From: a plasmid
Strand: one strand, 5' to 3'
DNA length: 4,234 bases
Assembly (NCBI RefSeq): GCF_056746865.1
Contig: NZ_JBWKMP010000009.1
The position numbers and the translations under genes were made by a program. Below are positions 133 to 4,234 of the stretch, in pieces (the stretch's first letter is position 1; each line of letters starts with the position of its first letter). The notes under the pieces were generated by a model. The model saw only the letters and a list, made by a program, of their open reading frames with translations. It was not told where the DNA came from and ran no database searches.

Positions 133-408
133 ATGAGCAGAACGCTCGAACAGAAGATTGCCGAAGCTGAGGCCAGATTACAGCGCCTGAAGGCGAAGAG
201 CCGGAGCCTGGACACTGCGCAAAAAGTCATTGTGGGAGCAGCCATGCTGGCGAGGGTACGGAGGCCGGAAGAGGCGCAACTGCGTGCGTTCCTGCTCCAG
301 TTCCTGCGAAAGGAAGTCACAAGACAGGCCGATGTGAACCGGCTACAACCACTGATTAACGAGCTGGAGAAGCTACCAAGACCACCTGCGAAACCGCAGA
401 ACGGATAA
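133..408 (+). CDS. mobC: MobC/TraD-family relaxosome accessory protein, 91 aa (MOBQ mobilization accessory protein)
   Basis: ORF with an SD. The N-terminal coiled-coil-like segment (EQKIAEAEARLQRLKAK) and central motif QKVIVGAAMLARV resemble RSF1010 MobC (about 94 aa; recalled motif RKVLVGAMILAKV). Small size and apparent divergent placement relative to mobA across oriT fit. Homology is recalled, not searched. Confidence 0.75.
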   Translation: MSRTLEQKIAEAEARLQRLKAKSRSLDTAQKVIVGAAMLARVRRPEEAQLRAFLLQFLRKEVTRQADVNRLQPLINELEKLPRPPAKPQNG

Positions 409-574: not shown

Positions 575-620
575 CTCAAAAAAGCGCCGAAAAGGCGCTG
601 TTATCTGATAAGGCTATTTG
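575..620 (-). other. ori: ColE2-type origin of vegetative replication (Rep binding and primer synthesis site), abutting and overlapping the rep stop codon
   Basis: The minus strand reads AAATAGCCTTATCAGATAACAGCGCCTTTTCGGCGCTTTTTTGAG. The block AGCCTTATCAGATAACAGCGCC (plus coordinates 594-615) matches what I recall of the ColE2-P9 minimal origin, and ColE2 ori is known to lie immediately 3' of rep. Recalled, not aligned. Confidence 0.6.
577..599 (-). terminator. Hairpin AGCGCC-GAAAA-GGCGCT followed on the minus strand by T6; probable intrinsic terminator for rep, embedded in the ori
   Basis: Seen in sequence: 6-bp GC-rich stem (583-588/594-599) with a 5-nt loop. On the minus strand it is followed directly by TTTTTTGAG. 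It lies 15 nt downstream of the rep stop codon. Confidence 0.45.
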
Positions 621-1522
621 TGCATTGCCCAATTACGGATCGTATTTCGATGTACATCCAGCATCGCCGCAATAGCTTTCTGAGAATATCCATTCTCCAG
701 CATACATAGCGCCATGAAACGCTTGTCCTCGTAGGCTTCGCCTTTAGCAAGGCCACCTTTCCGGCCTCGAGCGGCCTGTACAGCGGAAAAGCCTTCCGGT
801 GAGAATTTTCTGTGCGTGTATTTCGCAATGCTCTTGCCAATAGCCCGGCATTCAGCCAGTGAAAGAGGAACGGGAAGCGATGCGTTGTACATTTCGACAC
901 GCTGGATCACGGCATCAAGCCACTGTGAGAATGCTGGCCATCCCTGACGAATCGCTCTGTAAGCCCATTTACGCGTTATTTCGAACAGGTGGCAGTTTCG
1001 CCCCAGCCCGTAATGTTTATCGACGCTACGACGCTCTGAGGCGCTCAAATCGAGATAATCAGCCAGTTCATCGAGGGTATAGGCTTCCTCGCGCCACTCC
1101 ATCACCTGCCATTCCAGGTGGAACGGATTTTTGCAAATCAGTCCGCTGTAGTTCACATCTGCGTCAAGTTTCTCACACAGCGCACGTTCAATTGCAGCGG
1201 CGTATTTCAGCACCTTAACCGACGCATCAGGCGCGGTTCTCACGGCAAGATTGAGCGCGTATAGCAGGTGAGCGTGCCCATTCACGGGATTTTTTACGGT
1301 GATGTTCGGCGCGGGGGCGTTCCGGTCGCTCCAGTCAATCGCAGCCCCCTCGCGGTCAACGTCAAAAACCAGCCAGTGTTGCGCATGTGGCTGGTTCTGC
1401 TGAATGTACCGCGCAAGAAGCGCACGCCCTTTGCCGGAGATGCGAAGGCCGAAAGCGGGATCATCCGTGTGATAGGGACGGTGAGGTAAATTTTCTTCGA
1501 AGTATTGAAGCGCGGCGCTCAT
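614..1522 (-). CDS. rep: ColE2-type plasmid replication initiator Rep, 302 aa (plasmid-specified primase with C-terminal HTH DNA-binding region)
   Basis: A 302-aa ORF matching the size of ColE2-family Rep (about 35 kDa). The C-terminal stretch SQKAIAAMLDVHRNTIRNW is HTH-like. The conserved ColE2 ori block sits immediately downstream. SD GGAAGGA lies about 9 nt upstream of the ATG. Overall similarity to ColE2/ColE3 Rep is from memory. Confidence 0.9.
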   Translation of the reverse strand: MSAALQYFEENLPHRPYHTDDPAFGLRISGKGRALLARYIQQNQPHAQHWLVFDVDREGAAIDWSDRNAPAPNITVKNPVNGHAHLLYALNLAVRTAPDASVKVLKYAAAIERALCEKLDADVNYSGLICKNPFHLEWQVMEWREEAYTLDELADYLDLSASERRSVDKHYGLGRNCHLFEITRKWAYRAIRQGWPAFSQWLDAVIQRVEMYNASLPVPLSLAECRAIGKSIAKYTHRKFSPEGFSAVQAARGRKGGLAKGEAYEDKRFMALCMLENGYSQKAIAAMLDVHRNTIRNWAMHK

Positions 1523-1677: not shown

Positions 1678-1705
1678 ATTTACCATAACTCCTGTTGTAC
1701 GTACC
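1678..1705 (-). other. XerC/XerD site-specific recombination core (cer/psi-like multimer resolution site): GGTACGTACAA-CAGGAG-TTATGGTAAAT
   Basis: The minus strand reads GGTACGTACAA (XerC arm, 10 of 11 vs cer GGTGCGTACAA), CAGGAG (6-bp central region), TTATGGTAAAT (XerD arm, 11 of 11 vs cer). Reference sites dif, cer and psi are recalled from memory. Confidence 0.75.
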
Positions 1706-1804
1706 CCTTAAAACGCTCTCAGACGCGTTCTGACGCAAAAAACACAAAAAGACAAGAAAACACCAGGCCAAACCAGAAAAACGCGTCAGAATCGTTTTCA
1801 GGGG

Positions 1805-1822
1805 TCTGCATAACTATTCACG
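1805..1822. promoter_or_regulatory. ARG-box-like element (TCTGCATAACTATTCACG); candidate ArgR accessory site of the cer-like resolution site
   Basis: Seen: half-sites TGCAT and ATTCA separated by 4 bp, resembling the ARG box consensus (TGAAT-4 bp-ATTCA). It is centred about 120 bp from the XerCD core on the XerC-arm side, where cer-type accessory sequences lie. Assignment is tentative. Confidence 0.3.
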
Positions 1823-1897
1823 AAAGCGATGCGCGATCGGTTTCGACCGTTCAGAAGCGCGAACGGGTCAAAACGGCAAACTTTCTCATCCAGAAAA

Positions 1898-1968: not shown

Positions 1969-4188
1969 TCACATACTCATGCCCCGGTAATGTCCGGGGC
2001 GTCGTTGTTGTTGCCTGTGCTGTTCGTCCCGCTTCCATTCATGCCAGGTCTGATTAAATCCGAGTTGACGGAAGAGATAATCCGGCATCTCTTCCGGTTT
2101 GTGGACAGCAGCCAAAAGCCTGTCATGATGGCCTTTGAGCCGGAACTGCATCAGGTGCGGTTCCGGTGGGTACGGAGTATCCGCATCATGGTTTATAGCT
2201 TCTCCGTAACCTGCCAGGCATACCCCGTTCTCCGTGATGGTGCTGACTATCAGATGACTGTAATCCGGCGACGGAAGCGCAAGAACGGGACGCAGCCCGT
2301 CCTCCTGACGCACAAATCCGACAAGCACTTCCTCCGGCCCTTTGCACAACAGCAGATTCAGCGTCCTGCTGTTTCGCTCTGTCGAAAATACAACGGGCAT
2401 GAGTTGCTCCGGTGCCGCATAAGCGGTGACGTCCACCCGGTGCGCAGACGGCAGCGGAGAGGCTACGGGCCTGCGGTCGTCGCTGAAATAAAAATTATCC
2501 GGCCAGTGATGCGGCAGCGCCGGAAAACCGTAAGAGGGCCACCCCTGGCGCATCTGTTCCAGTACATGCCGGACCGTCGCACCGGAATACATTCTCACAC
2601 GCTCAGGCCGCGCCATCGTCTCATGAGATTCTGGCATTCCCTCACGTATATCCGAGACCATCACAGCCCCGCCTGGCGACAGGTAAACATTCACCGGGTC
2701 ATGAACACTCTGGGGGTAATGCGCCAGCTCATCACCCCATACCGTGAATTCTCCGGCTCTGTTACTCAGCATCATGTAGCGGGTTATCCTGCCCGTTCCC
2801 GGCTCTCTGGCACGCCCCAGCCCCGTAATAACCCCGGCTAATGCCGTTTCACGGCTCAGGCGATGGTTATCATGGTGTTTCAGCCGTGCGTCATATTCCT
2901 GTTCCTTCCGGCGCGCTTCCGCTTCGGCTTCCTCCCTGCGCCGCTCCGCTTCCCGTGCTGACAGTTTTTCTTTCAGCTCTGCCATTCCCGGCGAAATCCA
3001 CGTATTCCACTGCGTTTCAAAGGCCTGACGACGGGCGGGAATGTCCCGTTCTTTCACGGCCCTGTAGGTGCGGCGAAGAGATTCAATCTGTTTCTCGAGT
3101 TTCCAGAAGCGGAGTTGTCTTTTGCGGTATTCCGGTTCAGCCCATGTCATCAGGGGAAGCTCTGACAGGATGGACGCTACCGGACGGGCTTTTCTGAGTC
3201 CGGTCATCTCTTTTTCGAGAATATCCCGCTCTTTCACCAGCGCATTCCCCTCACGTTTGATGTCGTTTGCCTTCCCGTTCATCGCCACGAACTCCGGTGT
3301 CATCTCCCATGCGTTCCCGCATTCCTGCGGCAGTGTGGCAATGAATTCCCGCAGGGTATCCGCTGAGGCATTCGCGGCGGGAATGGTCAGATTAAGGGCT
3401 TCCGCTGCACGACGTGCGGCATCGCTGAGTTCCCGTTTCCGCACGTTCTCCTGTACCTGGATGACTGCCAGCCTTGTGCGGGAAACCTGTATTTCCAGGT
3501 TAAGGCTGTTAATCAGGCGGTTCTGCTCACCGCGTTCTGTTTCCATGCCCCGTTTTTCCATCGCACAGGCAGCCTTTCCGAGGTGAAGGCCCGGCGCTTT
3601 CTCCAGTCCCTGACGCTCGTATGAACGATGGTCTATCTCTTCCTGGTAGCCGGCGTTCGCAAGCGCTCTGTTCGCATGGTCAGCCCATGATGCGCGCCAC
3701 GTCTCGGCGAGTGCCCGGTCGTTCCAGTCCCTGACCTTTCCTGCGAATCCCGTTTCCCCGACAGCTCTCGTGGTCAGCATGATGTGTGCATGGGGGTTGG
3801 TCCGGTCCATATGATGGAACGCCACATCGGCAATCATGCCCCGACTGACAAAGTTTTCCCGGACAAAAGCGAGAACGGCCTCCCGTGCGGCCTCGCGGGA
3901 AATCTCACGGGGAATGGCGAGTTCAATCTCCCTTGCCAGCTGGGAGTTCCGGCGCTGTTCGGCTTTCTCGACCGCATTCCAGAGAACGGAACGGTCACCA
4001 CACCAGGACGGTGCATTCACAGGGGTGAGAATGACCGCATCATCAACGCCGCGTTTACGGGTGTAATCGTGGGTTAATCCGGTACGGTCATCGGGTATGA
4101 CAGAGCCGGAACGGTAGGCAGCAGAAGCAACGGCACTGTAGCCGTTTTTTCGCGAAATGATTTTCATGCTGAGATGATAAATCGCCAT
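1969..4188 (-). CDS. mobA: MOBQ-family relaxase MobA (MobA/MobL-type), 739 aa: N-terminal relaxase domain, charged coiled-coil linker, about 295-aa C-terminal domain of unknown function
   Basis: The N-terminus MAIYHLSMKIISRKNGYSAVASAAYRSG closely resembles RSF1010 MobA (MAIYHLTAKTGSRSGG...), with the catalytic Tyr at residue 25 (codon 4114-4116). His-rich metal-binding motif HHMDRTNPHAHIM is at residues 125-137 (about 3778-3816). The charged linker spans residues about 405-440. The C-terminal domain (about 1972-2856) was not recognized. Confidence 0.9.
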   Translation of the reverse strand: MAIYHLSMKIISRKNGYSAVASAAYRSGSVIPDDRTGLTHDYTRKRGVDDAVILTPVNAPSWCGDRSVLWNAVEKAEQRRNSQLAREIELAIPREISREAAREAVLAFVRENFVSRGMIADVAFHHMDRTNPHAHIMLTTRAVGETGFAGKVRDWNDRALAETWRASWADHANRALANAGYQEEIDHRSYERQGLEKAPGLHLGKAACAMEKRGMETERGEQNRLINSLNLEIQVSRTRLAVIQVQENVRKRELSDAARRAAEALNLTIPAANASADTLREFIATLPQECGNAWEMTPEFVAMNGKANDIKREGNALVKERDILEKEMTGLRKARPVASILSELPLMTWAEPEYRKRQLRFWKLEKQIESLRRTYRAVKERDIPARRQAFETQWNTWISPGMAELKEKLSAREAERRREEAEAEARRKEQEYDARLKHHDNHRLSRETALAGVITGLGRAREPGTGRITRYMMLSNRAGEFTVWGDELAHYPQSVHDPVNVYLSPGGAVMVSDIREGMPESHETMARPERVRMYSGATVRHVLEQMRQGWPSYGFPALPHHWPDNFYFSDDRRPVASPLPSAHRVDVTAYAAPEQLMPVVFSTERNSRTLNLLLCKGPEEVLVGFVRQEDGLRPVLALPSPDYSHLIVSTITENGVCLAGYGEAINHDADTPYPPEPHLMQFRLKGHHDRLLAAVHKPEEMPDYLFRQLGFNQTWHEWKRDEQHRQQQRRPGHYRGMSM

Positions 4189-4234
4189 TTCTGCCGTAAT
4201 GCCTTTTTGCCGTTTTCTTTTAGCGTCGCAGACC

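Follow-up and report, generated by a model that had tools for sequence, protein, structure and literature searches.

A cer-like dimer-resolution site with a predicted bent spacer in a ColE2-type mobilisable plasmid

Introduction

The closest described counterparts of the element analysed here are the multimer-resolution (Xer) sites of ColE1 (cer) and pSC101 (psi), and the cer-like sites of ColE2-group plasmids. At cer-type sites the accessory DNA wraps around PepA with ArgR (PMC2655662; PMC11724359), and phased A-T tracts have been stated to lie between the ArgR and Xer sites (PMC2831885). In ColE1 the same region encodes Rcd, a transcript of ~70 nt that is made from the promoter Pcer, the hexamers of which lie 15 bp apart (PMC5935869; PMC4393325). 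The group of plasmids that combines MOBQ42, a ColE2-like Rep and Col156 was described by Garcillán-Barcia et al., who reported a cer-like site there (PMC6856555). For the cer-like sites of ColE2-group plasmids we refer to Hiraga et al. (1994), as cited in that paper (PMC6856555).

The window analysed in this work, i.e. the whole stretch of 4234 bp, is a complete circular plasmid. It is identical to the E. coli plasmid p6_020022 (NZ_CP032885.1) and to many further E. coli and Salmonella records, and it is typed as Col156 and MOBQ. An initial annotation, made from the letters of the sequence, had picked out an A-rich tract flanked by short repeats at 1717-1795. It proposed that the tract was intrinsically bent DNA, and that the repeats might alternatively be binding sites for a host factor or the stem of a structured minus-strand RNA. 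Here we argue, with a probability of roughly 0.8, that 1717-1795 forms a bent spacer in the middle of the accessory region of a cer-like Xer (multimer-resolution) site, carried by a ColE2-type mobilisable plasmid, and that its role is chiefly architectural. The tract and the repeat would then be ordinary plasmid architecture, and the element is one that has already been described in this plasmid family.

Results

Plasmid context

Three genes stand out in the plasmid.

133-408, plus strand: small divergent ORF of 91 aa, with no Pfam match
614-1522, minus strand: ColE2-type replication initiator (rep), Pfam Replicase and PriCT_1 (PF03090, PF08708)
1969-4188, minus strand: MobA/MobL relaxase (mobQ), the end of which is at 1969

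The ORF at 133-408 diverges from mobQ across the junction of the record. It is probably the mobC accessory gene as described for MOBQ4 plasmids, with oriT between this ORF and mobQ. Directly past the mobQ stop, and just upstream of the cer-like accessory DNA, the minus strand holds a strong hairpin (1896-1940, MFE -32.2 kcal/mol, z -5.9) that is followed by UUUUCU. This is probably the mobQ terminator, and as such it would protect the cer-like site from read-through. Downstream of the core, 1557-1609 in the rep leader folds into a hairpin (z -4.0), after which the plus strand has a T run (TTTGTTTTT; the element spans 1557-1620), and weak Rfam matches to PK-repBA are found on both strands at 1557-1620. 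These observations are consistent with a ColE2-type antisense RNA I, which controls rep translation, together with the rep leader.

Anatomy of the cer-like site

The cer-like Xer site encloses 1717-1795 and is read in the direction of the minus strand. Its parts, with the evidence for each in brackets, are listed here in order of position.

1678-1688, minus strand: XerD-binding arm TTATGGTAAAT (identical to the ColE1 cer XerD arm)
1689-1694, minus strand: central region CAGGAG, 6 bp, which makes a 28-bp core (direct sequence reading)
1695-1705, minus strand: XerC-binding arm GGTACGTACAA (one base off ColE1 GGTGCGTACAA)
1710-1713, minus strand: T/U run (GCGTTTT, 1716-1710) immediately before the XerC arm (matched in the alignment by the 3'-terminal run of the ColE1 Rcd-coding segment)
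1713-1728, minus strand: small 4-bp hairpin ACGC-GUCUGAGA-GCGU before the U run, weak and terminator-like (MFE structures)
1719-1731, minus strand: 3' arm of an alternative stem S2 in the ColE1 Rcd stem register, pairing with 1778-1790 (repeat finder; the register covaries across families)
1728-1736, no strand assigned: one arm of the inverted repeat, TTCTGACGC as read on the plus strand; on the minus strand it is GCGUCAGAA, the 3' arm of stem S1 (repeat finder; alignment columns 97-105)
1737-1782, no strand assigned: 46-bp spacer that is A-rich (runs of 3-6 A) on the plus strand and T-rich on the minus; site of the predicted bend, with homology to the loop portion of ColE1 Rcd (curvature, alignment)
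1778-1790, minus strand: 5' arm of the alternative stem S2 (repeat finder, alignment)
1783-1791, no strand assigned: other arm of the inverted repeat, GCGTCAGAA as read on the plus strand; on the minus strand it is UUCUGACGC, the 5' arm of stem S1 (repeat finder; alignment columns 39-47)
1795-1800, minus strand: TGAAAA at the place of the ColE1 Pcer -10 hexamer TAAAAT (alignment columns 30-35)
1805-1822, minus strand: ARG box CGTGAATAGTTATGCAGA, an ArgR half-operator (aligns to the ColE1 ARG box)
1816-1821, minus strand: GTGAAT within the ARG box, at the place of the Pcer -35 hexamer and followed by a 15-nt spacer (alignment)
1823-1887, minus strand: distal accessory sequence of the cer-like site (plasmid-database homology, typical extent to 1887)

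The initial annotation had placed the tract between an XerCD core and an ARG-box-like element, and both were recovered by a core search, by alignment to ColE1 cer and in an alignment of 87 sites. The sequence features by which a cer-like site is recognised are present in the window: two 11-bp arms around a central region of 6-8 bp (GGTACGTACAA-CAGGAG-TTATGGTAAAT, 1705-1678, minus strand), an ARG box on the XerC side at a set distance, ~180-200 bp of homologous accessory DNA and, by prediction, intrinsic curvature that A/T runs impart to the stretch from the ARG box to the core. The small hairpin at 1713-1728 was missed by a terminator scan, and it is poorly conserved in family C, the sequence family of the window (see below).

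Comparison with the cer accessory sequences, which had been proposed as a check of the annotation, shows that the two are homologous. The accessory regions of ColE1 cer and of the window align nearly gap-free, and their T runs and predicted bends coincide in position. Both sites have the same XerD arm, XerC arms one base apart and a single ARG box ~107 bp from the core; measured from the ARG box centre to the XerC arm, the distance is 108.5 bp here and 106.5 bp in ColE1. They differ in the central region, which is 8 bp in ColE1 and 6 bp here and has a different sequence too, and only ~55-60% of the sequence from ARG box to core is identical. Furthermore, ColE1 has the long Rcd hairpin where the window has a 9-bp stem around an open U-rich loop.

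The psi site of pSC101 uses ArcA in place of ArgR and differs in this from the window, which has an ARG box; the accessory DNA of psi lies outside the comparison made here. What psi and the window have in common is a 28-bp core, a 6-bp central region and adjoining accessory sequences, which in psi need PepA (PMC11724359). The cer-like sites of the ColE2-group or MOBQ42 (Col156) plasmids share with the window the replicon type, the place upstream of rep and the sequence family. From these the window differs in nothing substantive, having two private substitutions (1723 and 1727).

Relatives of the site

In a sensitive search, 1844 plasmid records proved to hold homologues, with a typical span of 1660-1887 (query bases 1-228 of 1660-1900). 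For a comparative set we scanned genome and metagenome collections with core patterns, a search that retrieves sites with matching core sequences; this gave 163 loci and from these 87 distinct cer-like sites. Their alignment (A2; the window and 86 others) has 138 columns and is nearly gap-free. The ARG box and its spacing are conserved across the 87 sites, and the CGTTT of the run beside the XerC arm is invariant or nearly so.

The sites fall into four sequence families, namely A (ColE1 type, 22 sites), B (12 sites), C (the window's type, 33 sites) and D (20 sites). The central region measures 6 bp in 33 of the 33 family-C sites, against 8 bp in ColE1 and 7-8 bp in the other families, and a full ARG box and accessory region are still present in the window. 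Family-C sites that are 86-92% identical are found in colicin plasmids with a ColE2-type Rep, e.g. a site with 91% identity that lies upstream of the ColE2-type rep of a colicin plasmid.

Large IncF plasmids also carry cer-like copies. In a 178-kb IncF plasmid (L167, NZ_CP029580.1) positions 4001-4228 are a family-C site, 86% identical to the window and near a colicin/microcin immunity gene, and ~420 conjugative plasmids carry family-C-like copies. The copies in conjugative plasmids are perhaps remnants of integrated small Col plasmids. One metagenome contig (L063) has a pair of cer-like sites at a distance of 429 bp, with core matches at 1293-1316 for the first, which is identical to the site in the window, and at 1722-1745 for the second (aligned segment 1597-1728), which is without an ARG box. 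On other contigs, e.g. L047, a cer-like site recurs at plasmid-length intervals; these recurrences are probably concatemer assemblies.

Predicted DNA curvature

We computed helix-axis paths with the AA-wedge and the Bolshoy-Trifonov dinucleotide parameters, which follow the published wedge tables. The code gave correct results for its controls, i.e. phased A6 and A4T4 were curved, out-of-phase A6 and T4A4 were straight, and the predictions were strand-symmetric. In both models the strongest or joint strongest bend predicted for the plasmid is at 1742-1743 (99.8-100th percentile). For the 130-bp fragment 1700-1829 the ratio of end-to-end to contour length is 0.80, against a plasmid mean of 0.96, and none of 300 shuffles was as curved. 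A curvature prediction for a fragment at 1700-1830 had been suggested together with the claim that phased A-tracts make this cer-type accessory region intrinsically bent. The region is predicted to be curved in both models, and the claim gains support from these models, from the shuffles and from the homology to ColE1 cer, and agrees with the published placing of phased A-T tracts (PMC2831885). The A/T runs in the tract are not spaced strictly at 10.5 bp.

Curvature is predicted in all four families. It is strongest in family C, and on average 0-10% of shuffles are equally curved; family A, the ColE1 type, is weakest, with 3.8% of shuffles as curved under AA-wedge and 10.3% under Bolshoy-Trifonov. 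The curvature maximum of ColE1 cer falls at the homologous place. The same alignment columns hold a T4 run in family C and an A4 run in family D, with curvature predicted in both, so an A/T run is kept in place while the RNA sequence there changes. The A-rich tract would be the bending element of the site; read on the opposite strand, it corresponds to the loop of Rcd.

The second-highest predicted curvature of the plasmid (AA-wedge) is at ~585, just downstream of rep. ColE2-type plasmids have a short origin that is placed just downstream of rep.

The inverted repeat

The perfect 9-bp inverted repeat of 1728-1736 (TTCTGACGC) with 1783-1791 (GCGTCAGAA) is real, as both direct reading and a repeat finder (repeat I8) confirm, and direct reading likewise finds ACGCGT at 1723-1728 and 1781-1786 and GACGC at 1722-1726 and 1732-1736, just as annotated. 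The spacer at 1737-1782 is indeed A-rich and 46 nt long, but the string that had been printed for it lacks the final C. Perfect inverted repeats of at least 9 bp, with arms at most 100 bp apart, occur in 3% of 200 mononucleotide shuffles of 1600-1900, and the repeat taken alone is therefore only mildly unusual. The repeat finder also reports a second, overlapping inverted repeat (I6) of 1719-1729 with 1780-1790, which is 11 nt long and 91% matched.

Is the repeat conserved in relatives? The arms are: in the 53 sites of families C and D they are among the best-conserved columns of the alignment. Their complementarity is another matter, as the repeat is perfect in only 15 of the 53, and a mid-stem A.C mismatch is found in 21. 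Only a small sub-lineage, 2 of the 33 family-C sequences, has the extra copy of ACGCGT/GACGC at 1722-1728. This copy goes with the substitutions at 1723 and 1727, private to the window's sub-lineage, which create the second ACGCGT and complete the ColE1-register stem (1790-1778 with 1731-1719). These substitutions might be chance or a compensatory pair. The completed stem is S2, which is thus also possible in the window; it has 13 positions, including one U.U and one G.U, and its pairs 1786-1723 and 1782-1727 form only in the window's sub-lineage.

We considered whether the 9-bp repeat is the positional equal of the ColE1 stem and rejected this, as its 3' side lies 10 alignment columns away from that of the ColE1 stem. 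Judged from the alignment, the repeat is the counterpart of the Rcd basal stem, i.e. the base of the Rcd hairpin, most likely as a weakly constrained relic or variant of it. A pure relic would leave the conservation of the arms in families C and D unexplained, and some constraint is possible, either an RNA stem or another contact.

Signals of an Rcd-like RNA

The ColE1 segment homologous to the tract is Rcd-coding, and runs from just past the Pcer -10 hexamer to the U run beside the XerC arm. Positional homology in the alignment therefore puts the tract where Rcd is found, in the part of cer that separates the ARG box from the XerC arm, and on the strand that points toward the core. The earlier suggestion of a structured minus-strand RNA thus named the right place and strand. 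A terminal U run and a stem formed from both ends of the segment are further points of likeness to ColE1 Rcd.

The signals themselves are weak in the window. ColE1 TTGCAT-15-TAAAAT aligns with GTGAAT-15-TGAAAA (1821-1816 and 1800-1795), so that the place and the 15-nt spacer are kept while the hexamers differ; those of the window are the weaker, and the -10-like TGAAAA has a G in place of the key second-position A. A generic promoter and terminator scan of 1500-2000 called nothing. No family covered the region in an Rfam search, and ColE1 cer itself obtained no Rcd match in it, which implies that Rfam is without an Rcd model.

Folding sets the two plasmids apart. The ColE1 transcript region forms one long hairpin with an MFE of -35.5 kcal/mol and a z of -5.0. 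The window RNA has an MFE of -17.6 to -20.6 kcal/mol with a z of -0.8 (1787-1710) or -1.2 (1795-1710), and 25-38 of 200 shuffles fold as well. By this measure the stable long hairpin that closes the Rcd transcript is not found in the window. With z-scores computed for all 87 sites from mononucleotide shuffles, the means by family are -6.0 for A, -4.0 for B and -1.4 for both C and D.

When the ColE1 pairing register is followed across the 87 sites, double-sided changes are seen in 13 of 19 pairs, and the covariation score is 0.351 against at most 0.179 with slid partners; none of 500 shuffles reaches the observed values. Families A and B have different stem sequences round an almost invariant loop, with many G.U and almost no A.C on this strand. 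Comparative analysis thus gives families A and B the signature expected of a real RNA on the ColE1 top strand. In families C and D the G.U versus A.C pattern comes down to two or three substitutions and so favours neither strand convincingly. From families A and B we built a covariance model of ColE1-type Rcd, and it gives the window 23 bits (E ~2e-5 to 4e-4) as its sole significant match there, far below the 86-99 bits of family members. This score shows homology, not conserved structure. Of the 15 positions of the loop block GGTGGTTTGTTGCCA, which is unchanged throughout families A and B, the window matches only 6. In the window's lineage, the Rcd features appear to have decayed or diverged, and the features of the suggested minus-strand RNA are weak in the window, as seen in the fold z, the hexamers and the 23-bit score.

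Discussion

Our preferred explanation, that of an architectural spacer, draws on the homology to known sites, the site anatomy, the predicted curvature and the weakness of the RNA signals. How the spacer would act can be described by analogy with work on ColE1 and pSC101, from which we infer both how the DNA is wrapped and that Xer, ArgR and PepA are needed. The ~90-bp spacer between the ARG box (1805-1822) and the XerC/XerD core (1678-1705) would be bent intrinsically by its A/T runs. In a plasmid dimer, this bend would help the two directly repeated accessory regions to wrap round PepA and ArgR. The wrapped complex would trap a fixed number of supercoil crossings, so that XerC/XerD strand exchange would be confined to one molecule, and such intramolecular exchange would turn dimers back into monomers.

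Compatible with this architectural role is a working gene for an Rcd-like small RNA of ~78 nt, on the minus strand from ~1787 to ~1710, which would be made in dimers from the Pcer-like promoter GTGAAT-15-TGAAAA. The inverted repeat would be its basal stem, and the RNA would delay division until dimers were resolved, as in ColE1, the Rcd of which is marked by expression in dimers, binding to tryptophanase and induction of indole. The place, the strand and the 15-nt hexamer spacing do match ColE1 Pcer/rcd (15 bp: PMC5935869), and the ColE1-type covariance model singles out this region of the window. Families C and D conserve the arms and the GCGTTTT run, and within family C a G in column 44 mostly goes with a C in column 100 (5 of 6), which resembles compensatory repair. 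That said, the predicted RNA folds no better than its shuffles, whereas that of ColE1 does so by a wide margin, and the mean z of -1.4 in families C and D extends this to the relatives. A G at the critical second position of the -10-like hexamer, the empty promoter and terminator scan, the mid-stem A.C mismatch in 21 of 53 relatives and the poorly matched loop block also speak against such a gene, and a start equivalent to that of ColE1 would leave three to five of the nine 5'-arm bases outside the RNA. We therefore see a working gene as possible but doubtful.

The same arm conservation could reflect DNA recognition, the two arms being paired sites for a host DNA-binding protein (PepA, FIS or another) at the ends of the bend. 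In families C and D the sequence of each arm is well kept even in sites that have lost the complementarity of the two arms, and the arm centres are 55 bp apart, about five helical turns. However, families A and B differ strongly in sequence there and yet have the same host proteins, the arms match no known motif, and binding of PepA without a recognisable DNA motif has been reported (PMC11724359). The host-factor alternative of the initial annotation is left unsupported by these differences between cer families, and we consider it improbable. Still less probable is that the repeat acts in a plus-strand RNA, as a hairpin with an A-rich loop followed by UCGUUUUC, e.g. as a back-up terminator for transcripts leaving the rep antisense-RNA region. 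The fold on that strand has a z of -2.5, and all nine pairs are standard or G.U in 42 of 53 family C/D sites on the plus strand versus 19 of 53 on the minus strand, but this asymmetry amounts to only two or three independent substitutions. Nor is a 46-nt open loop credible as a terminator; the scan showed no evident plus-strand promoter, and the antisense-RNA hairpin at 1557-1609 already has a T run of its own. Finally, the T-rich minus strand could code for a hydrophobic peptide of 30 aa (MQTPENDSDAFFWFGLVFSCLFVFFASERV), as the ORF 1811..1719 exists and most family-C relatives keep it open. Stop codons are, however, naturally scarce in T-rich DNA, and this ORF is without a ribosome-binding site, has variable sites spread evenly over the codon positions (10/10/13), and is truncated or without an ATG in several relatives and in most ColE1-type sites. 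We judged it to be non-coding, and its chance of being a gene is next to nil.

Under the architectural explanation, the main gain is for annotation. An unannotated stretch of 230 bp, present in over 1800 enterobacterial plasmids with known sequence and among them large IncF plasmids, is accounted for, and the odd-looking A-rich tract and repeat become standard parts of a dimer-resolution site.

A further idea, which we put forward tentatively and hold to be rather unlikely, is that families C and D have kept the bend and the two arms but lost the ColE1-type Rcd hairpin. If this is true, very common plasmids may resolve their dimers without an Rcd checkpoint; alternatively, they may have a structurally different U-rich RNA, or may use the conserved arms for some other contact. 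A clear signature of Rcd RNA is seen only in ColE1-type sites and not in ColE2-type sites, and this matters wherever the Rcd checkpoint is assumed to be general in small plasmids.
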